Positions 3,852 through 64,000 of a DNA stretch of 64,000 bases are shown here, piece by piece; the first letter of the stretch is position 1, and every line of letters begins with the position of its first letter. This DNA comes from a virus. The DNA lies in IMG/VR virus record IMGVR_UViG_3300045988_067909, one strand, 5' to 3'. The notes under the pieces were generated by a model. It was not told the origin of the DNA. It worked only from the letters and a program-made list of their open reading frames with translations, and did not search any database. Position numbers and translations under genes: made by a program.

Positions 3852-3976
3852 TCTTTGTAGTTCCTCCCTTCGGAATGGAATTATTCGATTACTACTATGT
3901 ACTGACCGTAATAGCCTATTTAGCCCAACATCAAGTTAATCGTACCTATTTGAATAACAACAGGAGTGTTTAGAAT

Positions 3977-12532: not shown

Positions 12533-12573
12533 TATATAGCCTCCTTTCACCAATTTACTACTATGTTTCAACA

Positions 12574-12583
12574 GTACTATAAT
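12574..12583 (+). promoter_or_regulatory. promoter-like motif GTACTATAAT in the divergent intergenic region
   Basis: Matches the TATA[CT]TATAA motif that recurs through the window; 29 nt upstream of the lysin ATG. Confidence 0.35.
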
Positions 12584-13660: not shown

Positions 13661-13704
13661 CTTACTTGAACATCCCAGTAATTCTAAAATAGGAGGTTAA
13701 AACT

Positions 13705-14736: not shown

Positions 14737-14746
14737 GAGGTTTATT

Positions 14747-16054: not shown

Positions 16055-16068
16055 AGAAAGGAGAAGCT

Positions 16069-17445
16069 ATGTCTAAAGAGCAAGATGTAATAAAGTGGTG
16101 GCTATCCTATTCTGAAGAAGAAGCTAAACGTCGTAAAGAAGAATGGCTAGATGAGCACAATAAGTCTAGGCTATATAATGAAGTATTAGATAAGCTAACA
16201 GAGAAAGAGTTTAATACTGTATTACATAATACCATCAACGATATAAGATTCCATATGACTGATTCTTTTATGCATATATCTAAAGAAGAACGTGATACTT
16301 GGAATAAAGTCACATATGAATCTTTAACCAAGACAGTATCCGCAGAATCTGATGGTCTTATGTCTAAAGAAGATAAAAAGAAGTTAGATGATATACATGA
16401 AGGTGCTAATAACTATACTCACCCTAAATATAGACCAGTAACGTCTTATAAATTTAAGAAAGTTGATGAGTATGGTCACATCTATGGTTCATCTGAACCA
16501 GATGTATTACCAGTGACTGTAGACTCTGTAGATACATTGAATGGTAAACCTATTGAGTATTTTGCTAAGAATAATAACCAAATATTCAATAATATAACTG
16601 TGCCAGATGTAGATATCTCTACAGCTAAAGATAATACAGCTATTAATTATAAGACAATGAAGTCTTATGTATTAGATGGTGCTATACAAGTTACTAATAG
16701 TAATACAAATCTTGATACAAGAAAGCTTTGGTATAATACTAAAGATAATAAAGCATACTATTATCAAAGTAATATATGGAAACCATTCTCTATACCAGAT
16801 AAACCTGTGACATATAATGATAATGGGGTTATAGACAGCTCTTTATTACCATTAGTAGGATATCCTATAGGGTCTGTAGTTACTGTATATGGTAATACTA
16901 TCCCTCAAGGGTGTTTATTATTAGATGGATCCATTATATCTAAGGCAGACTACCCTAAATTATGGGATAGAGTATCACGATACTATAAGATAATATCTGA
17001 TAACGAGTATAACTCTTTACCATATGAGCATGCTACTACATACTTCTCACTTGTAGCATCAGATTCTGATAAATTTAGATTACCTAATTTATACAATCTA
17101 CATTTAAGACCTACGAGTGAAACTAATAAGCAAGGTGCACTACAACCTAACGCTAAACGTGCTAATATATATGGTACATTCCCAGTGACCCCATTTAATG
17201 GATATTCATTTCCGGAAGATATCGCACTCTATAATAAATATCCTATCGTTAAATGTGAACAAAGACCGATGACTACGTTTAGTTATGGGTCACCATATTA
17301 TAATGAATGGGGTTATATGGGTTATGAATATGCTAATAAGAATCGTGAATCATTAGACAATTACTATAAGCCTATAATAAATGAATCTAGTCAAGGTTTC
17401 TCTCCTAGATCTGTAACTGTTTTGTATTGTATTAAAGCTAAATAG
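16069..17445 (+). CDS. tail fibre protein with tail-collar domain
   Basis: HISKEERDTWNKVT and GLMSKEDKKKLDDIHEGANNYTHP. C-terminus: GYPIGSVVTVYG...GCLLLDGSIISKADYPKLWDRV...FRLPNLYNLHLRP...LYCIKAK, the tail-collar pattern. Confidence 0.75.
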   Translation: MSKEQDVIKWWLSYSEEEAKRRKEEWLDEHNKSRLYNEVLDKLTEKEFNTVLHNTINDIRFHMTDSFMHISKEERDTWNKVTYESLTKTVSAESDGLMSKEDKKKLDDIHEGANNYTHPKYRPVTSYKFKKVDEYGHIYGSSEPDVLPVTVDSVDTLNGKPIEYFAKNNNQIFNNITVPDVDISTAKDNTAINYKTMKSYVLDGAIQVTNSNTNLDTRKLWYNTKDNKAYYYQSNIWKPFSIPDKPVTYNDNGVIDSSLLPLVGYPIGSVVTVYGNTIPQGCLLLDGSIISKADYPKLWDRVSRYYKIISDNEYNSLPYEHATTYFSLVASDSDKFRLPNLYNLHLRPTSETNKQGALQPNAKRANIYGTFPVTPFNGYSFPEDIALYNKYPIVKCEQRPMTTFSYGSPYYNEWGYMGYEYANKNRESLDNYYKPIINESSQGFSPRSVTVLYCIKAK

Positions 17446-17454
17446 GAGGTAGCT

Positions 17455-19167
17455 ATGGGTGACTTTAATAATGAACTAGATAAAATTAATAAAACCGAAT
17501 TAGCTTCCCCGTTATCTAAGCTAATTAATGATGGCTATGCTCATATGTATAACCAAAATATGCATACATCTGAAAATGAACGTGATGTATGGAATAAAGC
17601 AGCTAATACTGTACTGTATAAAGCTAATATAGATTTGAATGGATTACTATCTAAAGAGGATAAAGAGAAACTAAATTCTATAGAGAGTGGTGCTAATAAC
17701 TATACTCACCCTAAATATATACAATCTAATGCTGGTACGTATATATCTACAGTATCAGATGATTCTGGTCATGTAATATATGGTAGTAATCCAACGTTCT
17801 TAGATTGTACTGTAGAGAATGCAACTAAGCTTAAAGATACAATCTTTGGTGAATTTGTACGTGCATCTAATCAAGTATTTGGGGATAATGTAACAATAAA
17901 TCCTAATAGCGATGTATATGATGGAACACCTGTTACATTTAAAAACTTTAATGATTATAGATTGGATAAAGCATTCAATAAATCTATAGCTATATCTACA
18001 GATGACGATTCATTATTTGCTCAAGATGGTACATCTAAGTCTATACATTATGGACTAAATAATGATATTGTAATATATAAACGTACTGTATCATCATTAA
18101 CAAGCTATTCATTGGTTAATTCAGCAAATACTATAAAACTAGTAAATGGTAAAATACCAATTAGATATATTCAAGATGATGGTGTGCCTATTGGTACTAT
18201 ACTATTCTGGTTAGGTTCTAATATACCTGATGGATATTTGCCTATGAATGGTATGGCTGTACAAAAATCATTAGTACCAGAGCTTATTGAATATGCTAAT
18301 ACTAATGGTCTATTAGAAAACTGGAATAATATGATGGAAAATAAGTACTACAATGCTAAGTTTGTACTAAAAGATGATAAGTTATATATGCCGACTTTTA
18401 ATAGAGCCATTACTGTATCAGCAAATAATAATAGAACGCTATCTGGTAATATTTCTGAATGGATTACTAAATATATCCGTGGTACATTCCAAGTAGCATC
18501 TGGTGCTATACAGTGGAACCCTGGTCCTAATGAGTTCAACTCTAAACAGGATACTGGTGAGATTCACGTAAAGAACGATGATGGTACAGATAAATTCTTA
18601 ATTCCAGATCCATCTACAGATATTGGGCAAACATATTTAACTATGTATGATAGTGGTGCTGTAGTATCAGCTGGTGATGATATGGCACCAGCTATGATGA
18701 CTGTAAATTATATTATCAAAGCATCATCTACAGGGCTAAAACTAAATTACGTTAAACAACTAAGTTACGATTATTATAATATAGATAATGGTAACCAGGT
18801 TAGATTTAGCGATGTATTAGACCATATCAAGTGTAATAATCATAGACCTATTGTTGATGTGACTATAAGTAATAGAGGTATAGCTTTTAGTAACTCAGCA
18901 GAGATTGATGGGGTCTATGATAAATTACGTTATGAACGTTTAAATCCATATAGACAGTTGATTATTCGAGGTTTGGGCAAATCAATCTACTATCCATATA
19001 GTGTAGATTTAAACGAAAATAACTTAATTACTATTGCAGAAAACAAGGTTCCTAATAGTACATTTACTATTCAGGTGTCAAAGGCCGATCCATATGATAG
19101 AATGGAAAAGTTTGACAGTTTAAAAACTAGACTTGCTAGTTATGGAGTAACGCTAGTAAAAGTATAA
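17455..19167 (+). CDS. tail fibre protein with tail-collar domain
   Basis: HTSENERDVWNKAA and GLLSKEDKEKLNSIESGANNYTHP. C-terminus: GVPIGTILFWLG...GYLPMNGMAV...LYMPTFNRAI...VNYIIKAS. Confidence 0.75.
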   Translation: MGDFNNELDKINKTELASPLSKLINDGYAHMYNQNMHTSENERDVWNKAANTVLYKANIDLNGLLSKEDKEKLNSIESGANNYTHPKYIQSNAGTYISTVSDDSGHVIYGSNPTFLDCTVENATKLKDTIFGEFVRASNQVFGDNVTINPNSDVYDGTPVTFKNFNDYRLDKAFNKSIAISTDDDSLFAQDGTSKSIHYGLNNDIVIYKRTVSSLTSYSLVNSANTIKLVNGKIPIRYIQDDGVPIGTILFWLGSNIPDGYLPMNGMAVQKSLVPELIEYANTNGLLENWNNMMENKYYNAKFVLKDDKLYMPTFNRAITVSANNNRTLSGNISEWITKYIRGTFQVASGAIQWNPGPNEFNSKQDTGEIHVKNDDGTDKFLIPDPSTDIGQTYLTMYDSGAVVSAGDDMAPAMMTVNYIIKASSTGLKLNYVKQLSYDYYNIDNGNQVRFSDVLDHIKCNNHRPIVDVTISNRGIAFSNSAEIDGVYDKLRYERLNPYRQLIIRGLGKSIYYPYSVDLNENNLITIAENKVPNSTFTIQVSKADPYDRMEKFDSLKTRLASYGVTLVKV

Positions 19168-19189
19168 TTTTTAATCAACCGGAGGGTTA

Positions 19190-19828
19190 GTGTTTATGAA
19201 CTATTTAATCAATCAAGTGAAAGCTCACTTGAAGATTATTATTGCTTTTATCGTGATTATCTTAATTTCTTTACTGACTATATTGTATTTTAAGCATGAA
19301 GCTAATGTAGAAGCTAATCGTTATAGAGAGATTCTTGATAACGTAACTAAGACTGCAGAATACAATAAAGAGTTAGCTAAAGAAAATAAAATAGTGATGG
19401 CAGCTATTGATGACTTACGTAATAATAAGCCAGTAAAAGAAACCATTACTAATAATAATACAGATACTATAAGATACATCGAGAAGACTTCACCAGAAGA
19501 TCCTGATGTAGTTGTCAATAAAGAAAAAACTGCCAGTATTAGATATAATGGAGAAACTTTCAGTACACCCTTACAATCTTCTGCGGCATCTAGTGTAGCC
19601 AAGGAAGATGGTACAGTAGAAATTAAACAAAAAGACGAAGTTGTTATTGACGTAACTGATATAGCTAATAGACAAATTGCTGCTCATGATTTAATGAGAG
19701 ATAAAGTCGAACAAGAGCTACGTGATGACGTCAAGAAACTTAAACATGAAAACAGAAATTACAAGATAGCTGGTGTAGCTTTAGGTACCGCTGGTATAGG
19801 GTATGCAATCTATAAGGCAAAGAAATAG
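19190..19828 (+). CDS. N-terminal TM anchor, coiled-coil region and C-terminal hydrophobic segment; spanin-like or other envelope-associated protein
   Basis: KIIIAFIVIILISLLTILYF is followed by charged helical sequence and ends IAGVALGTAGIGYAIYKAKK. GGAGGG lies upstream; an alternative ATG at 19196 is possible. Confidence 0.4.
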   Translation: MFMNYLINQVKAHLKIIIAFIVIILISLLTILYFKHEANVEANRYREILDNVTKTAEYNKELAKENKIVMAAIDDLRNNKPVKETITNNNTDTIRYIEKTSPEDPDVVVNKEKTASIRYNGETFSTPLQSSAASSVAKEDGTVEIKQKDEVVIDVTDIANRQIAAHDLMRDKVEQELRDDVKKLKHENRNYKIAGVALGTAGIGYAIYKAKK

Positions 19829-19884
19829 GTCAATTAGGTGAAACATAAAAATAAGTCTTTATTTTTATTAAAGGTGGTGATGAA

Positions 19885-20682
19885 GTGGACTTTGAAGGTG
19901 CTACTGGTGTACTTTCTATGGTTAAAGATATAGGTGCTATAGAATTTATTCTAATCTTGCTAGTGGCATATGTAATCTACTCCAACCATACCAATACCCG
20001 AGCAATTCTACAATTATCAAGAAGAGAAGAATCAGCTAAGCCTTCTGATAAGTCAGTACAATCTGAAGAAGCTAGAATGATCAATACTATGATTGATGAT
20101 ATGAATCAGCACCCATATACATTAAATAAACTAAATGAGACATATACCAAAACAAATACATTAATCAAACACAAACTCAAAGAGACTGCTGATACACTTG
20201 GAGCTGAACGTATTTGTGTGTATATGTTTCATAATGGTGAGCATTCGGTTAATAATATACCTTTCTTAAAGACCACTTGTATTTGTGAATACATAGATAG
20301 ACATAAAGGGGCAACCAGTCTACTTATGACTCACAAAGGTGTACCTATTAACTTAGCTAGTGACTTATTTAAGCGTATCAATAATCATCAGATTACAGTA
20401 TTGTATCCTGATGATGAAAACGTTATTGATAGAGTCATGGCAAACTTCTTCTATAGAGAGAATGATAATAGAACTACAATAGTGGTTACTATATATGACT
20501 CCTCTAACCAACTGGATGAAAAACCAGTTGGTTTTCTAAGTGCAGATTTTGAATTTGACCATAGGTTAAAAAGTGAAGAACTTAAAGACTACTTCACTGA
20601 ACTTGAAGAGCTAGCAGACTACTTATCAGTATCTGTATTAATTAGCTATCTTTTCTTTCAAACTAAAAAGGAAAAAGAATAA
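19885..20682 (+). CDS. hypothetical membrane-anchored protein
   Basis: GTG start with AAAGGTGGTGA upstream; N-terminal TM IEFILILLVAYVIY. Confidence 0.45.
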   Translation: MDFEGATGVLSMVKDIGAIEFILILLVAYVIYSNHTNTRAILQLSRREESAKPSDKSVQSEEARMINTMIDDMNQHPYTLNKLNETYTKTNTLIKHKLKETADTLGAERICVYMFHNGEHSVNNIPFLKTTCICEYIDRHKGATSLLMTHKGVPINLASDLFKRINNHQITVLYPDDENVIDRVMANFFYRENDNRTTIVVTIYDSSNQLDEKPVGFLSADFEFDHRLKSEELKDYFTELEELADYLSVSVLISYLFFQTKKEKE

Positions 20683-20697
20683 GGAGGAAGTTCTTTC

Positions 20698-22272
20698 ATG
20701 TCTAAACCCCAATTACTTAATAGACTGAAAAACAAAACTGATTTAGTTACCTCTGGTAATCTGTTACAGTATTCTGATACTACGGGTAGATTAGTAGAAG
20801 ATACTGGTTTAAATGCCCAGCAGATTAAAGCAGCAACGCTAAACAATGCCAATATCGTTAGTCACTTAGCTAATGATGGTATCCATGTAACTAGAGAAGA
20901 AAAGAAGTTTATTACACAAGATCATACAGATCTTAATAACCACTTAGTAGACGCATCCTCACATATTAGCCCGACAGATAGGGCTAATTGGGATGCCAAA
21001 GAAACCCCTGAAGGTGCACAAGCTAAAGTTAATATGGCTGCTGCATCTTTTAATAGACATATGGCTACCAAATCTATTCACGTTTCTAATAGTGATAGAT
21101 TGTCTTGGGATGATAAATATACTAAAGCTGAGATTGATAATAAGTTTGTACAGCTAGAATCTAATAATACTTGGAAAGAAGCTGTAGATACTTTTAGTGA
21201 GATTGATATTATGTATCCTTCTCCTCAGCGTGGTTGGACTGTATCTGTAAATGATACTAATATTACATTCCGTTATGATGGTGATAACTGGATTCCTATC
21301 TCTAGTAACGCTGTACCTATGGCTACAGCTGCAGTAGATGGTCTTATGTCTAAAGAAGACAAAGCTAAATTGGATACAGTAGAAATGGGTGCTAATAACT
21401 ATGTGCACCCTAATAATCCATCTACAAGACACGTATCTGATAAGGAGAAAGCATTCTGGTCAGCTAAGGCTGAAGACCGTAATGCTACTTATCAATATGC
21501 TGGTCTTATGTCTAAAGAAGATAAGTATAAATTAGACAATATTGAAACTGGTGCAACTAACTTTAGTATGCCTAGCAAATTAGACCCAACTATTATTGAA
21601 ACTGATAATGATCATTTATTCGTTACATTGGAAGAAAAGACTAATTGGTCTAATAAAGCAAGCAATAACTTAGTTACACCAAATGTAAATGGTATTATGT
21701 CTAAAGAAGATAAGATTAAACTTAACTCTGTAGATATGAATGCCAACTATTACATTCATCCACAAACGCATGACCCTTCTATTATCTTAGAAGATGCTAG
21801 TCATAGATTTGTAACTGATGAACAAATCTTAGCATGGAATAATAAATTAGATGGTTCTTTAGCTACAGCCACTTCTAATGGTGGTATGTCTAAAGAAGAT
21901 AAAGCTAAGTTAGATTCCATCGAAGAGGGTGCTAATAAATATAAGCTCCCAGCACAATTACCACCAACTATCATTGCTCAAGACCCTAATAATAGATTCT
22001 TTACTGATCAAGAAAGACAATCTCTTGCTGATAAGAAAGACTCTAAAGCAATCCTATTAGGTACAGCAGAGTTCAATGGTAGAACTGGTACTATTATCCC
22101 ACATAGCTTTGAGAATACATCATTCTCTGTAGCTATTACTCCAACAGCAAACCCTAATGGTTTGATTGGTGAAGTATGGGTTAAGAAAACTAATACAGCA
22201 TGTATCGTATACTGCTCTGGTGCAGGGGATGCTAAAATCCCATTCGATTATATGCTGATTTATTATAACTAA
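20698..22272 (+). CDS. tail fibre protein with about eight tandem repeat modules
   Basis: RBS AAGGAGGAAG. Repeats of the form H[IV]xxx[DE][KR]xxW and G[LIG]MSKEDKxKLDxVxxGANxYxHP occur at least 7 times along the protein. Confidence 0.7.
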   Translation: MSKPQLLNRLKNKTDLVTSGNLLQYSDTTGRLVEDTGLNAQQIKAATLNNANIVSHLANDGIHVTREEKKFITQDHTDLNNHLVDASSHISPTDRANWDAKETPEGAQAKVNMAAASFNRHMATKSIHVSNSDRLSWDDKYTKAEIDNKFVQLESNNTWKEAVDTFSEIDIMYPSPQRGWTVSVNDTNITFRYDGDNWIPISSNAVPMATAAVDGLMSKEDKAKLDTVEMGANNYVHPNNPSTRHVSDKEKAFWSAKAEDRNATYQYAGLMSKEDKYKLDNIETGATNFSMPSKLDPTIIETDNDHLFVTLEEKTNWSNKASNNLVTPNVNGIMSKEDKIKLNSVDMNANYYIHPQTHDPSIILEDASHRFVTDEQILAWNNKLDGSLATATSNGGMSKEDKAKLDSIEEGANKYKLPAQLPPTIIAQDPNNRFFTDQERQSLADKKDSKAILLGTAEFNGRTGTIIPHSFENTSFSVAITPTANPNGLIGEVWVKKTNTACIVYCSGAGDAKIPFDYMLIYYN

Positions 22273-27010: not shown

Positions 27011-27020
27011 TAATAAGAAA

Positions 27021-27061
27021 TCCCAGTATAGTCATTGACTATACTGGGTATTATTTTTTTT
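27021..27061 (+). terminator. rho-independent terminator (cccagtatagtca/tgactatactggg family)
   Basis: 13-bp stem followed by a T9 run; near-identical copies sit at 47942 and 63263. Confidence 0.7.
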
Positions 27062-27084
27062 GTAAAAGTTAATCTTTATAGTTA

Positions 27085-27191
27085 TATACTATAACTGTGT
27101 ATGGTAGATACAGCTATTCGTAGTAGCTGTATCTAAATATAGCCATACACTTGTAGACTATAAGTCTACTTGCCGAAAGGAGGTGACTCCT
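27085..27191 (+). promoter_or_regulatory. promoter motif plus conserved structured 5' leader, copy 1
   Basis: TATACTATAA at 27085-27094. Hairpin 1: gtgtatggtagatacagct / agctgtatcta[aatataa]ccatacac with a variable loop. Hairpin 2: gtagac-tataa-gtctac. Hairpin 3: AGGAG-gtga-CTCCT, which sequesters the SD and ends right at the ATG. Confidence 0.6.
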
Positions 27192-27398
27192 ATGGCGAAT
27201 CCGGGATGCGTAGGTAACTACGCTAACCAATTAGCGGAACGTTCAGCCAATGTTGGCTGGATGATCCGCTATTGCCAAGATATAATCTATGATTATGTCT
27301 ATGGTAATAACGGTGTAAGTTTAGCCGAAGCTAAAAAAGCTGAAGCTTACTTGCTCCAACACGGTATTAGTCTCACTGTTGATCTAGACAAAGTCTAA
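27192..27398 (+). CDS. small-protein family member (MANPGCVGNYANQLAERSANVGW...)
   Basis: ATG at 27192 lies 8 nt after GGAGG. The track's GTG start at 27183 falls inside the RBS. Paralog of 27585, 63435 and 63810. Confidence 0.6.
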   Translation: MANPGCVGNYANQLAERSANVGWMIRYCQDIIYDYVYGNNGVSLAEAKKAEAYLLQHGISLTVDLDKV

Positions 27399-27412
27399 TA
27401 CCAATTAATATA

Positions 27413-27457
27413 CATGGGTAGGTGTTCACTCATCTACCCATGTATTATTTTTTTTGT
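27413..27457 (+). terminator. rho-independent terminator (catgggtag...ctacccatg family)
   Basis: Stem catgggtag/ctacccatg then tattattttttttg; an identical copy lies at 63636. Confidence 0.7.
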
Positions 27458-27478
27458 AAGTAAACTGTTTTACAATTA

Positions 27479-27584
27479 CATACTATAACTGTGTATGGTA
27501 GATACAGCTGGCAGGCTATAGCTGTATCTAAATATAACCATACACTTGTAGACATAGTCTACATGCCGAAAGGAGGTGACTCCT
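27479..27584 (+). promoter_or_regulatory. promoter motif plus conserved structured 5' leader, copy 2
   Basis: CATACTATAA, then the same hairpin 1 stems with a different loop (ggcaggctat), hairpin 2 gtagac-ata-gtctac, and the AGGAG-gtga-CTCCT hairpin abutting the ATG. Confidence 0.6.
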
Positions 27585-27785
27585 ATGGCAGGATGTGTTA
27601 TGAATTACCATAATACATTAGCAGAAAGATCTACCAATTTAGATTGGCAGATCAGAACTGCTATAAGCCTAGTGATTGATCGTTACTTTGATATTAACAA
27701 TGTAACGCATCATGAAGCTATTAAGGCTTATCGATTCCTTAAAGCACAAGGAATCAAATTACCTATAACTGAAAATCACTTATAG
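27585..27785 (+). CDS. small-protein family member (MAGCVMNYHNTLAERSTNLDW...)
   Basis: ATG 8 nt after GGAGG; paralog of 27192. Confidence 0.6.
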   Translation: MAGCVMNYHNTLAERSTNLDWQIRTAISLVIDRYFDINNVTHHEAIKAYRFLKAQGIKLPITENHL

Positions 27786-27860: not shown

Positions 27861-29084
27861 TTATTTTAAACCAAATGCTTCCATAGGATCCATCTCAACC
27901 ATTCTAACTTGGCTATCATGGAATGCTTTCATGGCAACGTTCTTAAGTTTAGATGCTATTTGTGGAGCAGCAGCACCAATATTCTTTACTCCTAGACGAT
28001 AGAAGATATTACCAGCACACGCATTACAAACACCATTCTCAGCCTCACATAAAGAAGCAAATCTAAACTGTACTGTTTTACCAATATATTGATTCATATT
28101 CTCAGAAGTCAACTCTACCAGTTTATTTCCTTCTTTCATAAAGCAATAGATGTATTCTTTTATATTGTCTTTATTTAGAGTGATTGTAATAGTACGTTTA
28201 GTACCACAGTCACTACCCTTGTCTAATGTCTGAATGTGTTGACATGCTGGCAGTAATAGTTTTTCCCAATAGCCACCAACTTCTGTACGGCTAGCACGAG
28301 AGTAAGGACCTTCGGCTAGAGAGTTAGCAAAGTCAGCATAGTCTTCTTTAGATATACCTGTCATATAGTTAGACATAATGATATTATAACCCTTAGTCGG
28401 ATCTGGGTTTTTAGTAATACCACGAACAACAAACATGTTTTTGAAATGGTTACTCATATTAGATTTAGCACCACTATTATAAGTATCCATAGCTGGGTCG
28501 TCTTTAAGAATCTCTTCAGCTAAGTCTAATAGTTCTTCTTGAATCTTCAATACTATTTTAGGATCTTTAGCATCTAACTCTTTACGATATTTCTTAATAA
28601 GTTCTTCTTTAGCCTTATTGATTTTTGTCGTAATAGTCAATAGTTTCATACTATAACTAGTAGACAATATATTTACATAAGGCATGAACTTTTGACCTTT
28701 CATAACAAAGTCTTGCATAACTTTAAGAGTCTTTCTATTCTCTAGAATAGCATATGAGATCTCTTGCATAATATTACCAACCATCTTCTTGGTAATTGGT
28801 TTATTGATATACCCAAACATATCAAACAAGTCTTTCTCGATGAATACTCTATTGAATACCCATAACCCTACAGTTGTAACAAAAGCATTCTTATTCTTTT
28901 TTCCTTCTGGTCCATATGAGCCAGCTGGAATAGTAACTAAATCATATGTATTGAATCTACGTTTACCGTTAAATTCACCAAACATGCCAATTACTGTAGA
29001 AGTCTTAGCACCCATATCTTGATCTATAGATAGGATATAATCTATATCTTTAGCATTAGTAATTCTATTAGATGTACGTTTCAT
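27861..29084 (-). CDS. multisubunit RNA polymerase beta' fragment: bridge helix, second Zn site and first trigger helix
   Basis: NSGAKSNMSNHFKNMFVVRG resembles E. coli beta' DSGARGS..QIRQLAGMRG. SRASRTEVGGYWEKLL resembles the bridge helix TALKTANSGYLTRRLV. GSDCGTK matches the beta' DDCGT Zn ligand, and CEAENGVCNAC is Cx6Cx2C (E. coli C888/C895/C898). NIGAAAPQIASKLKNVAMKAFH resembles the trigger helix [21 protein letters not shown]. The ORF ends inside the trigger loop. RBS AAGGAGG. Confidence 0.7.
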   Translation of the reverse strand: MKRTSNRITNAKDIDYILSIDQDMGAKTSTVIGMFGEFNGKRRFNTYDLVTIPAGSYGPEGKKNKNAFVTTVGLWVFNRVFIEKDLFDMFGYINKPITKKMVGNIMQEISYAILENRKTLKVMQDFVMKGQKFMPYVNILSTSYSMKLLTITTKINKAKEELIKKYRKELDAKDPKIVLKIQEELLDLAEEILKDDPAMDTYNSGAKSNMSNHFKNMFVVRGITKNPDPTKGYNIIMSNYMTGISKEDYADFANSLAEGPYSRASRTEVGGYWEKLLLPACQHIQTLDKGSDCGTKRTITITLNKDNIKEYIYCFMKEGNKLVELTSENMNQYIGKTVQFRFASLCEAENGVCNACAGNIFYRLGVKNIGAAAPQIASKLKNVAMKAFHDSQVRMVEMDPMEAFGLK

Positions 29085-29202
29085 ATCGTATTACCTCCTT
29101 ACGGTTTACTATTATGTAAAGTCAATACTTTATGTCACCAAAAACATCTATGTAATTCTAACTATTCTACCCCAAAATGGGGTTTTTACGGAGGAGAAAT
29201 AA

Positions 29203-35386: not shown

Positions 35387-36561
35387 TGAAGATATTTATG
35401 ACAGATGAATTATATGACTATATTAAGACTCGACCAGATTTTAATGAATTCCAAACAGCTTATGATAAACTTACTTATGGTGAAACTATAAGAGAAGAGC
35501 TAGAAGCACAGTATAATTCTATGACTTCAGGAGAATTAGCTGAGTATCTTAATAAAGTCAAATCTGAAGTAGCAGATAGACCAGATTTAGTTAGATATAT
35601 AAACTATACATCTGATATATCAGTACAGACTCTAATGACTATAGTTAATGATACTAGTCTACCTAAAAAAGATAAGATGTATGCATTACTAAGATTATTC
35701 ACTTATAGTTATGCTGATGGTATCCATTTTGAATATGTAGTTGATTTTGTCACTATGTATAATGCTATGAGTGCTGAAGAGTTGGCTACATTACCTAGCT
35801 ATATTCATGTAAACTATATTGAATTGAATGGCTATTATTTGTATAAGACTATGCAAGATAACCATGAGACTTTCGATACAACTGCTTATGATAAACTAGT
35901 AGAGCATTATAAAACAGTCAAAGAGAAAGTTAAACCATATTATAGTGATGCTGATGTAATAGATAATATATGGCTTGAAGTCCAAGCTTACTTTATTAGA
36001 CTATTACATAATGACTTAACTAATACTGCTATAGATATCATCTTAGAACGTATTAATCTAGACCATGAAAAGCTAACCAATAAATACAAATATGTATCTT
36101 TAGGTGTCATGTGGCTATATGAAATGTATATGGAAACTAGTTTTAATGCTAGTAACTATCATGGGTTTATCTTATGGGCATTTAAACTATTTAGATATAT
36201 AGATAGTGCATTAGCTGATCATGATAACCTATTTGATGGTTTAAGATTCTATGATAAAGTTAATATTATAGCATTTGCTATTATAGTTAGACGTCTTCTT
36301 AATATTAAAGAAGTCTTCATTTCAATAGTTCAATTACGTTTATTTAACTTAGACTTTACTGATGAATTATTCTTAGCTGGTGAGGGTGTAACTAATGTAA
36401 ATCTTACATCTAAGCCATCTAGAGATGCTATGTTGTCTTTTAAGAATTACGTAGACGTATGGTTTAATAATAATAAGCCTAAGCTAATTCAGCTTAGAGA
36501 TGATTCGGCAACTATGGAAGACTTCCGTGCTATTATTCGTGATTACTTACATTCAGTCTAG
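35386..36561 (+). CDS. hypothetical helical protein
   Basis: I prefer the ATG at 35386 (MKIFMTDELYDYI), with GGGGGGTGG upstream and a TAATG overlap with the upstream stop, over the track's 35353 start. Confidence 0.5.
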   Translation: MKIFMTDELYDYIKTRPDFNEFQTAYDKLTYGETIREELEAQYNSMTSGELAEYLNKVKSEVADRPDLVRYINYTSDISVQTLMTIVNDTSLPKKDKMYALLRLFTYSYADGIHFEYVVDFVTMYNAMSAEELATLPSYIHVNYIELNGYYLYKTMQDNHETFDTTAYDKLVEHYKTVKEKVKPYYSDADVIDNIWLEVQAYFIRLLHNDLTNTAIDIILERINLDHEKLTNKYKYVSLGVMWLYEMYMETSFNASNYHGFILWAFKLFRYIDSALADHDNLFDGLRFYDKVNIIAFAIIVRRLLNIKEVFISIVQLRLFNLDFTDELFLAGEGVTNVNLTSKPSRDAMLSFKNYVDVWFNNNKPKLIQLRDDSATMEDFRAIIRDYLHSV

Positions 36562-36577
36562 GAGGTGATAGTTAATT

Positions 36578-37780
36578 ATGGCAGATATAGAATTTAATAT
36601 GAATAACCGCTATAGATGGACTATCCCTGATATTCCATATGTAGTTAAGAAAGATAATAAAACAACAACTGAGATACCTAATAATGTAGATATAGCTTTT
36701 GATAGACACTTTGTGGATACTACAGTACGTGGATTAGTAGAATCCTATCAAACTTGTGTAGCTATATATGCTGAAATGAAACAGTTGTCATATAATCCAA
36801 CTGTAGATGCTAAGGGTAGAAACTATTGGGAATCTAGTACACCAAAGTATCAACAAAACCAAGAAGCTAATATAGATACAGATCACTCTAATAAGATGAA
36901 CTTTAACAATCCATCTTCTGGAGATCATTTACATCCATCTCGTATTGTAGATCTAAATCAACTATTATCTTCTAGTACACAGGTAGAGAGTAATACATTA
37001 GAGAATATATTAGACTTCTATGGTGTATATCATCCAAGTATTGGTGGTGGGTCTACTAATATAACTGAACGTATCGTTTTAAGTAATGATAATGCAGAGC
37101 CACCTAAGATGGAACTTGTAGATGCATTTAGAGATGCTAATGGTAATACTAAGTTCCCAGCTAGAACTGATGGTCAAAGTTATAATCAACCAATTAAACT
37201 AGAATGGTTTGCTAGACTTAGAGAGAATCTAATTAATACATCTAACTTCTTCATTAAGAATAATGGTAAGTTTTATGATGTAAATGGATATTGTGTTGTA
37301 GGATGTCAAGTAAACTGTCAGTCCACATGTCAATTGACTTGTCAACATAGACAATTGGGTGATGATTTCTTAAATAAAACATTCTTAGAGTGGAATGAAG
37401 ATCTACAAACTATATACAAACTAGGTTGGCAAACATATGACCACCCAGACCATGACCATAATGTATACATATTCTTCTATGACCCATGGGGTAGACGTTG
37501 GATGTATCGTAATACTAGATACTATGGAGATGGTTATTATCTATTACCAGATCAAAATGATATATACTCTATACGTCCTACACATCATGCGGATGATAAC
37601 ATGAATCTAGAGTGGTATCCTGGTGCGCCATATGATAACCCTAAACAATATCATTGGGAGATGGTACGTAATATACATACAGGTAAAAATGACTTGGTTA
37701 ATAAACTAGACCCACATTGGAATGATGCTGGTAATTACTATGTATCAGATGGTTATTGCCATAGCTGTGATAATAGATAG
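36578..37780 (+). CDS. Cys-ladder protein B1 (GCQVNCQSTCQLTCQHRQLGDDF; C-terminal CHSCDNR)
   Basis: RBS TAGGAGGTGATAG. Tandem paralog of 37797..38921; the first ~65 aa and the central FPARTDGQSYNQPIKLEWFARLRENLINTSNFFIKNNGKFYD are near-identical in both. Confidence 0.7.
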   Translation: MADIEFNMNNRYRWTIPDIPYVVKKDNKTTTEIPNNVDIAFDRHFVDTTVRGLVESYQTCVAIYAEMKQLSYNPTVDAKGRNYWESSTPKYQQNQEANIDTDHSNKMNFNNPSSGDHLHPSRIVDLNQLLSSSTQVESNTLENILDFYGVYHPSIGGGSTNITERIVLSNDNAEPPKMELVDAFRDANGNTKFPARTDGQSYNQPIKLEWFARLRENLINTSNFFIKNNGKFYDVNGYCVVGCQVNCQSTCQLTCQHRQLGDDFLNKTFLEWNEDLQTIYKLGWQTYDHPDHDHNVYIFFYDPWGRRWMYRNTRYYGDGYYLLPDQNDIYSIRPTHHADDNMNLEWYPGAPYDNPKQYHWEMVRNIHTGKNDLVNKLDPHWNDAGNYYVSDGYCHSCDNR

Positions 37781-37796
37781 GAGGTGATAGTTAATT

Positions 37797-38921
37797 ATGG
37801 CAGATATAGAATTTAATATGAACGATCGCTATAAATGGACTATCCCTGATATCCCATATATAGTGAAGAAAGATAACAAAATCACTACAGAAATCCCAGC
37901 TGATGTAGATATAGCTTTTGATAGACACTTTGTGGATACTACTGTACGTGGATTAGTAGAATCCTATCAAACTTGCGTAGCTATATATGCTGAGATGAGT
38001 CAGCTGGTATATAATCCACAAACCAACCGTCAAGGTAATAACTACTGGGATGGCAATAATAGATTTAGACAAAACCAAGAGAATAATGTAGACTTAGACC
38101 ATGCTAATAAGATGAACTTTACTAATCCACATAAAGAACCACATAGTTCAGGTACACGTATAGCAAATCTAAATTCTATACTCAATGATCCAGATGGTGT
38201 TAGAGAAGATAATCTAGAATCTATACTAGATTATTATAGAACCTATAATTCTGATACTAATGGTGGTATATCTGTAGACTTGTCTATGAATATATTAAAT
38301 AATGGATTAAAAGCAGAAGCACCAGCATATATACAAGTAGATGCATTTAGAGATGCTAATAGCAATACTAAATTCCCTGCTAGAACTGATGGTCAAAGCT
38401 ATAATCAACCTATAAAATTGGAATGGTTTGCTAGACTACGTGAGAATCTCATTAATACATCTAACTTCTTCATTAAGAATAATGGTAAGTTTTATGATAA
38501 TGGTGGTTTCTGTGTTATAGGTTGTCAGGTTAACTGTCAATCTACATGTCAATTGACCTGCCAGCATAGACAGCTAGGTGACGATTTCTTAAATTATACT
38601 AAGCTTGAACGTTATGAGCATGCTGAGATTATTAAGAAATTAGGTTGGCCAGACTTCCGTGGACGTAATGGTAATGAGTCATTAAACTATTATGACCCCT
38701 GGGGACGTATATGGCGTTGGTATGTATTTGCTAAACAAGGTTATGGTGCATACTATTTAGGTCATGAACCGCATGACAATTATTGGTATTTTGAAAATAA
38801 TATCGGTTGGTATCCTGGTGCTCCGTTTGATAGACCTGCTGGTGTAAACCCAGATGGTAGCATACCAACACCAAAACGTGATCCTGATTATGATCCTTGT
38901 GCTGGTTGTGAAAATAGATAG
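37797..38921 (+). CDS. Cys-ladder protein B2 (GCQVNCQSTCQLTCQHRQLGDDF; C-terminal CAGCENR)
   Basis: The ~45 nt around the start (taggaggtgatagttaattatggcagatatagaatttaatatgaa) are identical to B1; the C-terminal third diverges. Confidence 0.7.
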   Translation: MADIEFNMNDRYKWTIPDIPYIVKKDNKITTEIPADVDIAFDRHFVDTTVRGLVESYQTCVAIYAEMSQLVYNPQTNRQGNNYWDGNNRFRQNQENNVDLDHANKMNFTNPHKEPHSSGTRIANLNSILNDPDGVREDNLESILDYYRTYNSDTNGGISVDLSMNILNNGLKAEAPAYIQVDAFRDANSNTKFPARTDGQSYNQPIKLEWFARLRENLINTSNFFIKNNGKFYDNGGFCVIGCQVNCQSTCQLTCQHRQLGDDFLNYTKLERYEHAEIIKKLGWPDFRGRNGNESLNYYDPWGRIWRWYVFAKQGYGAYYLGHEPHDNYWYFENNIGWYPGAPFDRPAGVNPDGSIPTPKRDPDYDPCAGCENR

Positions 38922-42586: not shown

Positions 42587-42616
42587 ATCCATGGGTGACC
42601 AACCCATGGATTTTTA
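42587..42616 (+). terminator. rho-independent terminator
   Basis: Stem atccatgggt/acccatggat, then ttttt. Confidence 0.6.
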
Positions 42617-42660
42617 ACACTCTTATAATTTGAACAAATTCTTTCATTGGAGGTAATATA

Positions 42661-58740: not shown

Positions 58741-60285
58741 ATGGAAGAAAGAAAATTAAACATGAATATCCGTCTTCATCATTCACCAAATGAATCATGG
58801 AAGACAACTATGGAGATTCTAGATTTAGATAAGCTTCGTATCGAGGGTATATCTAAAGGTAGAGACTTTATCATTTCTGAACCACAAACTGTAAAGAAAG
58901 ATTTAAAGTCAGATTCTTCCATCTTCTCTAGTAAATATGGAGCATCTATATCTGATGATAAAGATGCTTATAAGGATAGATATCGTTGTGAATGTGGTCA
59001 CTATACTGGTAGACTATATAATAACGAAATCTGTCCTTACTGTAATACTAAGGTCAAATATGTAGACGATGACCTTAATATTACTGGTTGGGTTGTATTA
59101 CAAGAGCATGTAATCATCCACCCTAACTTATTTAAGAACCTAGAGAAATTAATCACTCCAGCCGTTCTTAAAGACATCTTGACTCTAGATGTAGAGCTAG
59201 ATGAAAATGGATTCGAAGTATCTAAAGTAAATGAGAAAGTCAGAAAAGAATCTGGTGAGTATCATGGTATTGGTATGATAGAATTCTGTAAAAGAATAGA
59301 TGAGATTATGGAATACTTTGCTCGTAAGAACAAGTCCAAGAAAGATAAGATAGCTAACTATGAGTTGCTACTAAAATATAGGGACAGATTACTTACACAT
59401 TCTATTCCAGTATATTCTCTATTCTTACGTATGGTTAATCTCCAAGGGGATAAGTTCTCCTTTAAAGGAGCTAATGCTATTTACAATAATATCGCTAAAT
59501 ATGCAGCATTAGTAAATGGCAACCGTACAGTAATCCAAGCAAGAGATCAATTTAAAGATGAGGCTCTCTTGAATATTCAATATCTATATGCTGGGTCTAA
59601 TGATTCTTTGTATGATTCTGTCATTGAAGAATTAGCACATAAGAAAGGTGCCATTCAATCTGCATTAGCTGGACGGTATAACTTTACTGGTCGTAATGTA
59701 ATCATTCCAGATGCTACATTACGTATTGATGAGATTAAGCTTCCATATAACTCATTACTAGTTCTATTGGAACAAACTATCATCAATATCCTAGCTAGAT
59801 CTTATAATATCACTTATAGCGATGCTCATAAGAAGTGGTGGAAAGCCCAAACTTATGTAGATCCAGTTATATTAGATATCATCAAAGGTATCATTAAGTC
59901 TTACCCTCGAGGTATTCCATTCATCATCAATCGTAACCCAACTATCAACTATGGTTCTGTGTTACAAATGTATTGTATTGATGTATTGGTAGATTCATTC
60001 ACTATGAGAGTTCCATTACAGGTATTACCTGGTATGAATGCGGACTTTGACGGTGACTGCTTGAATATCACTTATCTTATTAATAAGGAATTCGTAGCTA
60101 GATGTGAAGAGTCTTTGAATCCTAGAAATACTATGATGATTTCTAAGAACAATGGGCGATTCAATTCATTCATGAACTACTTCAAGGATACTATTGTAAA
60201 CTTGAATAGTTTCTGTAATCTAGGTTTCGATACTTATACTAAAGATGAGATAGATGATATCAAAGCTCTAATGGAGGGTAGATAA
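58741..60285 (+). CDS. multisubunit RNA polymerase beta' N-terminal fragment (Zn finger through catalytic NADFDGD)
   Basis: RCECGHYTGRLYNNEICPYC is Cx1Cx12Cx2C, as in beta' C70/C72/C85/C88. LAGRYNFTGRNVIIPD resembles KRVDYSGRSVIVVGP. INRNPTINYGSVLQ resembles LLNRAPTLHRLGIQ. GMNADFDGDCLN holds the absolutely conserved NADFDGD. The ORF ends about 50 aa after it. RBS AGGAGG. Confidence 0.8.
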   Translation: MEERKLNMNIRLHHSPNESWKTTMEILDLDKLRIEGISKGRDFIISEPQTVKKDLKSDSSIFSSKYGASISDDKDAYKDRYRCECGHYTGRLYNNEICPYCNTKVKYVDDDLNITGWVVLQEHVIIHPNLFKNLEKLITPAVLKDILTLDVELDENGFEVSKVNEKVRKESGEYHGIGMIEFCKRIDEIMEYFARKNKSKKDKIANYELLLKYRDRLLTHSIPVYSLFLRMVNLQGDKFSFKGANAIYNNIAKYAALVNGNRTVIQARDQFKDEALLNIQYLYAGSNDSLYDSVIEELAHKKGAIQSALAGRYNFTGRNVIIPDATLRIDEIKLPYNSLLVLLEQTIINILARSYNITYSDAHKKWWKAQTYVDPVILDIIKGIIKSYPRGIPFIINRNPTINYGSVLQMYCIDVLVDSFTMRVPLQVLPGMNADFDGDCLNITYLINKEFVARCEESLNPRNTMMISKNNGRFNSFMNYFKDTIVNLNSFCNLGFDTYTKDEIDDIKALMEGR

Positions 60286-60521
60286 TGTATACTGGAAATA
60301 ACTACTTTGCTGCTAGATCCGAAGTATTACAATTAGGTGAAGCTGTAGTAGTAAAATCTGAGTTACACGATATTGATATTCCATGTCGTGTAGCTTTAAT
60401 TGAGCCGAATGATCCGATGCAAGGTTATAATACATACTATCTTGTATCTGATTATTCTGATTTGAACGATAAATTCGATCCACGCATTGGAGACTTCCAT
60501 TGTGTGATCATTGATAAATAG
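60285..60521 (+). CDS. small hypothetical protein
   Basis: ATGA overlap with the beta' fragment stop; 78 aa. Confidence 0.5.
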   Translation: MYTGNNYFAARSEVLQLGEAVVVKSELHDIDIPCRVALIEPNDPMQGYNTYYLVSDYSDLNDKFDPRIGDFHCVIIDK

Positions 60522-60635
60522 GGGGTTATTATGGGCGGTACTACATACGGTGGCTTCTAATAATTAATATGTATTGGGGTAGTCTTAAGGGCTACCCCAA
60601 ACATTTATATAATTTTTTGTCATTAAGGAGGTATT

Positions 60636-62222
60636 ATGGCTAAGAAACCTTTTTATGAGTACCGTATAGTCACTCCAGTAGGCCCAGATAATGATGGTAA
60701 TATACCTCTGATTGAGCTTGATATAAAACGTGATGATGACCCTGGTATTCATACTATATCTGAAATAAAGAAAGATAGAGAGCAGTTACCTAGGTCTGAT
60801 AAAGATACACCATTGACTACTGATGATGTACAGTTAAAAGTAGAGCCTGGTAAAGACTTTGAAGTGGTTAATAGAGATGTATTAGCTAAGATATATGCAG
60901 ACCCTGATAAGTTTAAACCAATTGATATAGTAGAACGTATGGAGAAGAAGATATATCGTAATCTCTGTGTTCCATCTCATGTACACGCATACTCAGTATG
61001 TGTAGAGTTCTTTAAGAACTATATCTTATCACAGTTTAGTGCATCATTCTTTAAGACAGTCTACATCGAAGGGAAACATCTCTTTGATGATTGGGCTAAA
61101 CTTAATATCAATGATATGATTAAACGTGGTAAACCTGCTATTGCTATTATTCCTCAGTTAGATACAGACTTTAACCGTGATGGTATAGATGCTAATAACT
61201 ATGACTTAACGTATTATGCCAGAACGTTCAACTATAGAGATACATTCTTTAAAGATAGAGAGCGTGATAAGTATATTGCTATAGCATTTGAGCAAATGCT
61301 TATGAACTTCCAAGTACGTATCAAAGTCAATACTAAAGCTAAGCAAATAGATATTATGAAATATCTTAAGATGGCTCTTAAAGTTGGTGCCACATCTGGT
61401 AAGTATCTTGATATGGATATCCATGTACCACAAGAAATGCTACTAGCATTAGCTCAAGATGTAGGATTTGATGTAGATCTAGAGAAGAAAGAAATCAAAG
61501 ACCCATTCAAATTCCTAGTATACTTAAATAGTAAGTCCGAAGTCCCATTCATCTATAAGCTTAGAGCTATTAATGGTAGAAATGAGTTCTTTATTAGAGC
61601 TAAAGCTATGTATACTCATATAGCTACACCAGATATCAATATAGATGATGGTGAGCGCCAAGGACAAGTAAGTTCTAATTACTTTATTGAGTTTACTACA
61701 GAGATTAGAATGCCAGCGCCTAAAGTATATTGCTACTTTACTGCTAAGCACACTAATCTTATTGAGTTTACTGATAACGCTGGTAATATTAAGTCGTATG
61801 TAGCTAACTTTGCGAATGTACCAACATTGAATGAACGTGGTTGGGAACAATTCTTTACATTAGACTATGAAGATAAGAAAGATAAAGTGCTAGAGATTAG
61901 TATTAGCGATATCTTTGATGGTGACCCATATATAAATAAATTAATAAAGTACTGTAAGTCTAAGTTCATTAGTCCATCTGTGTTTATTGACTTTAAGATT
62001 GTCAATAATAATAAGATAGTTGATATAGATGTCAACTGGACTGATATGGTTATCAATACAATCAAACCTGTAGACTTTGAGTATTCAGAGATAGTCGTTT
62101 ATACTGATAAAGCATATATGAATTCTCAATTACTAGCTATGGAACAAGATACAGGCTACCGTGTAGTCTATAATAAAGATCCAGAATCTGAGAACTATCC
62201 TATACATGATAATAGAAATTAA
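60636..62222 (+). CDS. hypothetical protein (528 aa)
   Basis: RBS AAGGAGG; no RNAP or structural motif recognised. Confidence 0.55.
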   Translation: MAKKPFYEYRIVTPVGPDNDGNIPLIELDIKRDDDPGIHTISEIKKDREQLPRSDKDTPLTTDDVQLKVEPGKDFEVVNRDVLAKIYADPDKFKPIDIVERMEKKIYRNLCVPSHVHAYSVCVEFFKNYILSQFSASFFKTVYIEGKHLFDDWAKLNINDMIKRGKPAIAIIPQLDTDFNRDGIDANNYDLTYYARTFNYRDTFFKDRERDKYIAIAFEQMLMNFQVRIKVNTKAKQIDIMKYLKMALKVGATSGKYLDMDIHVPQEMLLALAQDVGFDVDLEKKEIKDPFKFLVYLNSKSEVPFIYKLRAINGRNEFFIRAKAMYTHIATPDINIDDGERQGQVSSNYFIEFTTEIRMPAPKVYCYFTAKHTNLIEFTDNAGNIKSYVANFANVPTLNERGWEQFFTLDYEDKKDKVLEISISDIFDGDPYINKLIKYCKSKFISPSVFIDFKIVNNNKIVDIDVNWTDMVINTIKPVDFEYSEIVVYTDKAYMNSQLLAMEQDTGYRVVYNKDPESENYPIHDNRN

Positions 62223-62228: not shown

Positions 62229-62267
62229 TACCTGGATGGGCAAATCGCTCATCCAGGGTATTTTTTA
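62229..62267 (+). terminator. rho-independent terminator
   Basis: Stem acctggatg/catccagggt with loop ggcaaatcgct, then attttttaatt. Confidence 0.65.
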
Positions 62268-63251: not shown

Positions 63252-63262
63252 ACAAAAGAAAT

Positions 63263-63303
63263 CCCAGTATAGTCAATGACTATACTGGGTATTATTTTTT
63301 TTT
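63263..63303 (+). terminator. rho-independent terminator (cccagtatagtcaatgactatactggg family)
   Basis: Same hairpin as 27021 and 47942, followed by a T-run. Confidence 0.7.
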
Positions 63304-63326
63304 GTAAAAGTTCATTATTATAGTTG

Positions 63327-63434
63327 CATACTATAAACGTGTATGGTAGATACAGCTAGTCTCAAGTAGCTGTATCTAAATATAACCATACACTTGTAGG
63401 AGTATATCCTACTTGCCGAAAGGAGGTGACTCCT
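63327..63434 (+). promoter_or_regulatory. promoter motif plus conserved structured 5' leader, copy 3
   Basis: CATACTATAA; hairpin 1 stems identical, loop agtctcaagt; hairpin 2 gtagga-gtata-tcctac, whose stem is changed in a compensatory way relative to copies 1 and 2; AGGAG-gtga-CTCCT at the ATG. Confidence 0.6.
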
Positions 63435-63611
63435 ATGACTGGTGCTCAAATGAGATATTACAATCTCACAGCTGGTCATGAAGCTAATCTTTATTTAAAA
63501 ATAAGATTAGCTCTAGACATTGTACGCAACTACGAGAATGGTAATTCTGAAAACTATTCTCGTAGTGAGTACGATGAATGCTTAAAATTCATTCAAAATC
63601 TAGAACCTTAG
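63435..63611 (+). CDS. small-protein family member (MTGAQMRYYNLTAGHEANLYL...)
   Basis: ATG 8 nt after GGAGG; divergent paralog of 27192. Confidence 0.55.
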   Translation: MTGAQMRYYNLTAGHEANLYLKIRLALDIVRNYENGNSENYSRSEYDECLKFIQNLEP

Positions 63612-63635
63612 ATTTGTGGATGAATGAATAATATA

Positions 63636-63678
63636 CATGGGTAGGTGTTCACTCATCTACCCATGTATTATTTTTTTT
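63636..63678 (+). terminator. rho-independent terminator (identical to 27413)
   Basis: Stem catgggtag/ctacccatg, then tattatttttttt. Confidence 0.7.
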
Positions 63679-63702
63679 ATAAGTAAACTGTTTTACGATT
63701 GT

Positions 63703-63809
63703 ATACTATAATTGTGTATGGTAGATACAGCTGCCTACAATAGCTGTATCTAAATATAACCATACACTTGTAGGATATTAATCCTACTTGCCGAAAGGAG
63801 GTGACTCCT
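63703..63809 (+). promoter_or_regulatory. promoter motif plus conserved structured 5' leader, copy 4
   Basis: TATACTATAA; hairpin 1 loop gcctacaat; hairpin 2 gtaggat-atta-atcctac; AGGAG-gtga-CTCCT at the ATG. Confidence 0.6.
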
Positions 63810-64000
63810 ATGGCACCAAACGGTTGCATAGGTAACTATGCAAATCAACTAGCAGAAAGATCTTCCAATCTAGATTGGCAGATTCGTACTGCTATGAGCC
63901 TAGTGGCTGATCGTTATGCTGACATCAACAGCGTAACGCATCACGAAGCCATAATGGCTTACCGATTCCTTGTATCACAAGGATTCAAATTACCTATAAC
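63810..64000 (+). CDS. small-protein family member, 3' end beyond the window (MAPNGCIGNYANQLAERSSNLDW...)
   Basis: ATG 8 nt after GGAGG; closest paralog of 27192 and 27585; runs off the window end. Confidence 0.55.
   Translation, partial: MAPNGCIGNYANQLAERSSNLDWQIRTAMSLVADRYADINSVTHHEAIMAYRFLVSQGFKLPI

Follow-up and report, generated by a model that had tools for sequence, protein, structure and literature searches.

The 64,000 nt of IMG/VR virus record IMGVR_UViG_3300045988_067909 analysed here (the window) include, close to one end, an open reading frame (ORF) of 514 amino acids (aa) at 58741..60285 on the plus strand. A first-pass annotation, made from the sequence alone, had taken it for the stand-alone N-terminal fragment of the β′ subunit (β′N) of a split multisubunit RNA polymerase (RNAP), as in phiKZ- and AR9-like jumbo phages. 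In the open reading frame listing the ORF begins with ATG, 8 nt downstream of an AGGAGG Shine-Dalgarno sequence, and its stop codon and the start codon of the following ORF overlap (TAATG). Regular expression searches located a CxCx12CxxC zinc finger (CECGHYTGRLYNNEICPYC; C83, C85, C98 and C101), GRYNFTGRNV (residues 311-320, 59671-59700), NRNPT (residues 397-401, 59929-59943) and NADFDGD, in exactly the order originally claimed. The second of these motifs is present with a different spacing from the GRxxxGRxV type described, as it is GRx4GRxV and one residue longer, and the ORF stops 75 aa beyond the last D of NADFDGD rather than the approximately 50 aa that had been estimated.

A search for homology to RpoC had been proposed as a check, and when the ORF was compared with Pfam, PHROGs and the PDB, clear matches were returned from all three. 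RNA_pol_Rpb1_2 (PF00623) matched above its gathering score (3e-11), and phrog_2987, 'RNA polymerase beta subunit', matched at 1.5e-63 versus 4.9e-10 for the paralogous phrog_2986. The best match among solved structures was gp270, the β′N of the non-virion RNAP (nvRNAP) of phage AR9 (PDB 7S00/7S01 chain d, 5e-40), with an alignment that covers residues 109-488 of the ORF and extends to residue 421 of the 426-aa AR9 chain, 5 short of its C-terminus. The next PDB match, phiKZ gp55 (3e-15), yielded an alignment that spans the zinc finger, and the cyanobacterial γ and bacterial β′ subunits matched over only ~170 residues around the active site. When phage genomes were searched using tblastn, there was a single matching place per genome, and the top match was phiR1-37 g274, 'RpoC, N-terminus'. 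Further matches were found in AR9-like Bacillus phages, Listeria phage LPJP1, the Staphylococcus S6/MarsHill group and Erwinia jumbo phages. In the Staphylococcus and Erwinia phages the matching gene is annotated as nvRNAP β′, and the AR9 record labels g270 'non-virion RNAP subunit, β′ N-terminus'.

An exhaustive HMMER search found 196 clusters (50% identity) at E≤1e-30, and nearly all of them are stand-alone proteins of 400-560 aa. When relatives with as little as 30% identity were aligned, no variation was seen in the four cysteines, GR..R, NRNP or AD[FY]DGD, and all sequences shared the C-terminal end point. The NADFDGD motif had been called invariant, and this holds for its AD[FY]DGD core. 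However, the leading N (60037-60039) varies, being G in strain variants that are 97% identical and G or A in remoter relatives. Relative to its natural variants, the ORF shows 60-131 synonymous versus 3-14 non-synonymous differences, a ratio of non-synonymous to synonymous polymorphism (pN/pS) of 0.013-0.028, and it is under strong purifying selection. At 514 aa it does not have the single ~1200-1500 aa architecture of cellular RpoC, and it ends at the usual split point of the family, after the double-psi β-barrel. We conclude that the ORF very probably encodes the β′ N-terminal subunit of a phage nvRNAP, the counterpart of gp270, g274 and gp55, so profile matches, solved structures and genomic context all support the identification made in the first-pass annotation. 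Split β′ subunits are textbook knowledge for phiKZ/AR9-like jumbo phages, and this ORF is an ordinary, well-conserved member of the family. A 1201-aa protein (P0267) that matches the β′N fragment over its first ~470 residues was also recovered, and may represent a β′ that is not split, or has been fused again, in an otherwise split family.

Comparison with the AR9/PBS1 protein (PDB 7S00, 7S01, 7UM0 and 7UM1) revealed that the two are collinear to the C-terminus and are split at the same site, but share only ~29% identity. AR9 gp270 contains SGDYDGD where the ORF has the canonical NADFDGD, the zinc finger lies in an N-terminal part that is outside the AR9 alignment, and, unlike AR9 g270, the gene here has no intron or homing endonuclease. 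The best full-length phage match was phiR1-37 g274 (88% coverage, 3e-36, zinc finger included), though at 29-30% identity. In phiR1-37 the gene order is also β′N, small ORF, hairpin and structural protein (g272, corresponding to the 528-aa ORF downstream here), but the small ORFs are unrelated and no AACA-N6-TA site was found 5′ of g272. Like the ORF, phiKZ gp55 (PDB 7OGP) is a split β′N with a zinc finger and NADFDGD, and is part of a five-subunit non-virion enzyme. However, it is far more distant (3e-15), phiKZ has a TATG late promoter, and phiKZ gp68 has no sequence similarity to AR9 gp226. A natural split of β′ is also found in cyanobacteria, where the N-terminal polypeptide, RpoC1 or γ, ends after the same domain (8h3v_E and 8syi_D, ~1e-12). 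In contrast to the phage enzymes, the cyanobacterial RNAP is cellular, with α and ω subunits and sigma factors, and its γ is ~625 aa and similar only in the active-site region.

In an assembly collection, 323 indexed blocks contain the exact β′N protein, and the contigs concerned measure 232-273 kb; the protein was likewise found on viral contigs of IMG/VR that are 260-267 kb long. One of these, IMGVR_UViG_3300007186_000004 (267,353 bp), carries a 100%-identical β′N at ~191 kb. As the exact protein is on contigs of this size, the G+C content of the window is 30-38% and tail-fibre and endolysin genes are present, we conclude that the window derives from an uncultivated jumbo phage of ~256-272 kb that recurs in many metagenomes. 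The search for β fragments elsewhere in the genome, also proposed with the original identification, was successful, as both βN and βC, together with β′C, were found on IMGVR_UViG_3300007186_000004 (Table 1), 60-120 kb from the β′N gene. They lie in AR9-like gene orders, UvsX-βC-NAD ligase-...-βN and virion β′N-DNA polymerase-nvRNAP β′C. A 704-aa protein (P0209) considered as the β′C of this phage was rejected, as it comes from a different, related phage; the right locus was found with a 17-sequence alignment.

A homolog of gp226, the fifth AR9 subunit, was not found by a pattern search of IMG/VR or by a hidden Markov model search of ~1 Mb of early-promoter loci. In AR9, BpSp and phiR1-37, gp226 adjoins the primase gene, and the primase neighbourhood yielded a 547-aa ORF (L347:3705-5348) that matches the gp226-family profile (hmmsearch, 3.4e-23; hhalign, 98%, E 2.2e-13 over 394 columns). 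A GroEL-like gene is two genes 5′ of it, and the order GroEL-x-gp226...primase is as in AR9. The flank of this locus shares 94-98% identity with loci on IMG contigs where the other subunits are encoded. By these comparisons, L347:3705-5348 is a predicted sigma-like gp226-family subunit, on contigs of the same phage species. Orthologs of AR9 gp154, gp105, gp089 and gp226 have thus all been recovered. By analogy with AR9, for which the structure of the holoenzyme is known, β′N would assemble with the separately encoded β′C (708 aa), βN (593 aa) and βC (748 aa), and the sigma-like subunit would join these four core fragments to give a five-subunit enzyme that works without host RNAP subunits. What β′N brings is the zinc-binding domain together with the lid region and the double-psi β-barrel, whose Asp triad (ADFDGD) binds the catalytic Mg2+.

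Genes related to those for the second, virion-packaged RNAP of AR9 were also present. The product of 27861..29084 in the window matches phrog_2962 (3.8e-71), aligns with β′ from the bridge helix to the trigger loop and is 33% identical to AR9 gp264, an annotated virion-RNAP subunit. When the first exon of gp145, the virion β′N of AR9, was used as the query, it matched a 573-aa ORF (L125:1027-2748, 2.8e-53) on the same IMG/VR contig as the identical β′N, and there was no match to 58741..60285. This paralog contains IGGDYDGD, lacks the zinc finger and shares only the catalytic motif with 58741..60285 (BLASTP E 0.06). As 58741..60285 is orthologous to gp270, gp145 matches a different gene and the two paralogs fall to PHROG 2987 and 2986, sequence comparison assigns the ORF to the non-virion set of a genome predicted to carry both sets, the virion set being represented by β′N and β′C fragments.

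The first-pass annotation also suggested that the neighbouring ORFs 60285..60521 (78 aa) and 60636..62222 (528 aa) could hold further pieces of the RNAP. Neither gave any RNAP signal. The 78-aa ORF had no match in Pfam or PHROGs and no similarity to phiR1-37 g273, its single-sequence AlphaFold model was unusable (pLDDT 44), and weak homologs of it lie beside the tail-terminator gene in relatives. The profile of the 528-aa ORF, built from 32 sequences, aligned end to end with phiR1-37 g272 (96.7%, E 4.5e-10), a proteomically annotated structural protein in the same position 3′ of g274. Its AlphaFold model (pLDDT 69.5, core above 80) matched a phiKZ neck protein (9xps_w, 1.2e-9) and the tail terminators of T4 (gp15), P1 and T5. 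Relatives of 34-52% identity likewise have β′N followed by a small ORF and a tail terminator. The 528-aa ORF had also been considered as the fifth RNAP subunit and was discarded, as it had no PDB match by single sequence or profile, and both the g272 alignment and the fold pointed to a tail terminator. We conclude that it is a predicted tail-terminator/neck protein and that, judged by profiles and model, no part of the RNAP is encoded by either neighbour. A 9-codon ORF (MGGTTYGGF, ~60520-60561) with its own AGGAGG Shine-Dalgarno sequence separates the 78-aa ORF from the following hairpin and is kept in 17/17 strain variants, in some as MGGTTCGGF.

A recurring motif in the window, TAGTTRTATACTATAA, was found in seven copies with at most one mismatch, versus 0.15 expected, all on the plus strand and all intergenic, and usually just 3′ of a terminator hairpin. 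One copy, TAGTTGTATACTATAA, stands at the head of the operon with the β′N gene (56581..60521). Variants that contain the core GTATAYTATAR precede the nvRNAP β′C, βC and βN genes, and the annotated early promoters of AR9 (ATATATATTATA) have the same core. Each RNAP-encoding jumbo phage has been reported to have an AT-rich early motif of ~10 nt that is read by the virion RNAP (PMC7598289). Given the core shared with AR9, the position in front of nvRNAP genes and this generalization, TAGTTRTATACTATAA looks like an early promoter that drives the β′N gene and would be read by the virion RNAP. The motif had previously been described as not resembling a sigma-70 promoter and linked to the enzyme to which β′N belongs. 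The former stands, as TTGTAA-N19-TATACT fits a sigma-70 promoter only loosely and there are 36 sigma-70 sites versus 48.5 in shuffled sequence, but the motif is better read as driving the β′N gene than as being read by that gene's own enzyme. Lying behind TAGTTGTATACTATAA in an early operon, the β′N gene would be transcribed by the injected virion RNAP. The 240 nt leader between this motif and the first ORF of the operon (56341-56580) contains a long T-run hairpin (~56376-56470), as well as a mini-ORF of 8 codons preceded by a strong ribosome-binding site, and could be an attenuator. Early-type motifs are also part of a ~150 nt module present in four copies (27012-27200, 27406-27590, 63256-63440 and 63629-63815), in which a terminator hairpin, the motif, a conserved leader with inverted repeats (GGTAGATACAGCT...AGCTGTATCTA), a ribosome-binding site and a small paralogous ORF are combined. 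The module has no Rfam match.

A second class of motif corresponds to the late consensus of the AR9 nvRNAP, 5′-AACA-N6-T(A/G)+1 (PMC7598289, PMC9209446). AACA-N6-TAAK occurs exactly seven times in the window, always on the plus strand and 36-60 nt 5′ of the first gene of operons that lack the early motif. As 13.8 sites on both strands are expected from shuffled sequence, and the seven found are all upstream of operons, the motif is depleted everywhere but at these sites. The copy at 60600 (AACATTTATATAAT) and the hairpin before it are invariant in 17 strain variants. A relative of 51% identity has a hairpin and then AACATTATGATAAT 5′ of its tail-terminator homolog, more distant relatives have TACA or GACA-N6-TAAT at this position, and the motif is missing in one relative. 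As in AR9, where AACA-N6-TA sites precede structural operons, the position of these sites suggests that the assembled nvRNAP would transcribe the late and structural operons, including the tail-terminator gene just downstream of its own β′N gene. The virion-RNAP genes are preceded by TACA-N6-TAA variants, not AACA-N6-TAAK (TACATAATAGTAAA at 29085-29125 on the minus strand and TACATATTAATAAC at L125 ~1030-1050), which may represent a separate, perhaps middle, promoter class.

Both RNAP sets are split at the same site after the double-psi β-barrel (PMC7598289) and packaging cannot be read from sequence alone, which would allow the ORF to be the β′N of the virion-packaged, early RNAP instead. This is very unlikely, given that the ORF is orthologous to an experimentally defined nvRNAP subunit (gp270, 5e-40), that the virion gp145 finds its match in another gene of the same genome (2.8e-53), that the PHROG assignments of the two paralogs differ, and that an early-type promoter motif precedes the gene, as expected for nvRNAP genes. 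The confinement of similarity to cellular β′ to ~170 residues around the active site (E ~1e-7) might also be expected of a captured bacterial rpoC remnant in decay, or of a fragment that works with the host RNAP. However, a decaying gene would not be under such strong purifying selection (pN/pS 0.013-0.028) or retain all of the catalytic residues and zinc ligands that are invariant in the family. Hundreds of stand-alone relatives are of equal length, and the phage encodes a full set of four core fragments and a gp226-type factor, so we consider a remnant or host-dependent fragment extremely improbable.

The overlap of the next ORF with the β′N stop codon, and the intron with a homing endonuclease that interrupts AR9 g270 itself, could be taken to indicate that the β′ gene is interrupted here by an intron, intein or frameshift, and that 60285..60521 and 60636..62222 encode the rest. 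There is next to no chance of this. Neither ORF matched an RNAP in Pfam, PHROGs or the PDB, the C-terminus of the β′N ORF coincides with that of AR9 gp270, and we count an interrupted gene as already refuted by the end-to-end alignment of the 528-aa protein with the structural g272, its neck/tail-terminator fold and the full β′C fragment ~120 kb away. Thus, an intact β′N subunit of the nvRNAP is the reading retained.

Reading of promoters by the AR9 enzyme needs uracil in the template strand, and V206 in the 2.1bis helix of gp226, which excludes thymine, was reported to be absolutely conserved in homologs from deoxyuridine (dU) phages (PMC9209446). In an ungapped alignment anchored by NKLY and a conserved W, the 2.1bis stretch of the gp226 homolog is KRNTKLW, versus YSDVVIW in AR9. 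The valine is therefore replaced (V206→K), as is I207 (I207→L), while the W is kept. Of the βN residues that contact the -10 base (gp105 numbering), R363 is conserved, K375 is R and N382 is D or N, in an alignment that is moderately reliable. Several points weigh against the nvRNAP reading as a whole. Because the 2.1bis helix of the gp226 homolog is divergent, promoter recognition may differ in detail from that in AR9. The β′ lid is ~4 residues shorter than that of AR9 in the alignment with 7S00 chain d. The contigs with the gp226 homolog belong to the same species but are not demonstrably the one with the identical β′N ORF, and both the five-subunit assembly and the early and late assignments are predictions from homology and motif position. 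The AR9 queries gp151, gp221 and gp104, which between them represent dTMP phosphatase, dCTP deaminase and Ugi, had no match in the ~100-150 kb of the phage that was covered, which is part of the genome, and the value of such queries is limited as dU-pathway enzymes are non-orthologous between dU phages (PMC12697855).

The clade appears to keep the AR9 late consensus (template 3′-TTGT/UUGU-N6-AT) without the valine that accounts for strict U dependence. Tentatively, and with rather low confidence, we suggest that it uses AR9-style template-strand recognition on thymine DNA, or that dU or otherwise modified DNA is read via a different pocket. If thymine DNA is read, this enzyme would parallel, in nature, the engineered V206G enzyme, and with either outcome the only known mechanism of template-strand promoter recognition would extend beyond the dU phages, a group represented by PBS1/AR9, phiR1-37 and S6. 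The clade is therefore a natural test case for the reach of the template-strand, uracil-dependent recognition described in AR9. The β′N gene itself is a secure annotation anchor that marks the window as part of a ~260 kb jumbo phage with genes for two multisubunit RNAPs. What has been added to it is a complete nvRNAP gene set, two classes of promoter-like motif that sort operons into early and late, and a divergent gp226-family factor.

Table 1. Positions of the β′N gene, its predicted partners and the associated genes and motifs (window coordinates unless a locus is given)
Feature	Position	Strand	Remarks
nvRNAP β′ N-terminal subunit gene (very probable), 514 aa	58741..60285	+	zinc-binding domain, lid region, double-psi β-barrel and catalytic Asp triad
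β′ zinc finger CxCx12CxxC	58987..59043	+	residues 83-101
Catalytic motif NADFDGD	60037..60057	+	residues 433-439; AD[FY]DGD core invariant among relatives
Early-promoter-like motif TAGTTGTATACTATAA	56325..56340	+	heads operon 56581..60521
Three ORFs (255, 305 and 162 aa)	56581..58728	+	upstream in β′N operon; third with weak helix-turn-helix-like match
78-aa ORF	60285..60521	+	start overlaps β′N stop; not an RNAP piece by any test
GC-rich hairpin	60574..60600	+	closes early operon; invariant in 17 strain variants
Late-promoter-like AACATTTATATAAT	60600..60613	+	36 nt 5′ of tail-terminator start 60636; AR9 analogy puts transcription start at ~60611
Predicted tail-terminator/neck protein, late structural gene, 528 aa	60636..62222	+	profile and fold matches
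Intrinsic-terminator-like hairpin with T run	62231..62257	+	end of unit
Late-promoter-like AACA-N6-TAAT	3927..3940	+	5′ of ORF 3977
Late-promoter-like site	12570..12583	+	5′ of endolysin gene 12612
Late-promoter-like site	13669..13682	+	5′ of tail-fibre-like operon 13705
Late-promoter-like site, TAAG variant	19842..19855	+	5′ of ORF 19885
Late-promoter-like site	29143..29156	+	5′ of ORF 29203 and radical-SAM operon
Late-promoter-like site	42616..42629	+	5′ of ORF 42661
Virion-RNAP β′ C-terminal fragment, 407 aa	27861..29084	-	AR9 gp264 ortholog; not the partner of the β′N ORF
nvRNAP β′C, 708 aa	L125:5974-8100, ~69 kb on IMGVR_UViG_3300007186_000004		AR9 gp154, 7S00_D, 1.9e-38
nvRNAP βC, 748 aa	L272:3983-6226, ~131 kb on IMGVR_UViG_3300007186_000004		7S00_C, 2.5e-69
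nvRNAP βN, 593 aa	L293:3998-5776, ~125 kb on IMGVR_UViG_3300007186_000004		7S00_c, 6e-41

Elsewhere in the window, tRNA and Rfam scans returned no match, and an ORF of >1300 codons on the minus strand (1-3935) runs off the window start. Five tail-fibre-like genes (13871-21950) share eight copies of a 94 nt coding repeat (...GLMSKEDKAKLD...), and its spread across all five indicates that these genes are modular and recombining. Behind the late-type motif at 29143 is a cluster of five radical-SAM genes (PF04055; 29790-42392) interleaved with ORFs of 370-570 aa. Two of these interleaved ORFs are tandem paralogs (36559-38636) with 81-89% DNA identity. Peptide modification and nucleic-acid modification are both possibilities for the role of the cluster.

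Two genes for YadA-like trimeric autotransporter adhesins (50501-52282 and 52360-55077), the second with a C-terminal SLH domain, lie by an early-type motif at 50333. As their nearest chromosomal relatives, at 38-46% identity, are in uncultured Veillonella metagenome-assembled genomes, they hint at a host in the Negativicutes. The phage clade is abundant and is probably human-associated and linked to Veillonella. An adhesin of 60% identity was found in a 16 kb sequence binned as 'uncultured Solobacterium' (L366; CALISH010000016.1). As the assembly from which it was derived, ERZ772945, is also a source of contigs of this phage, it is probably mis-binned phage DNA.

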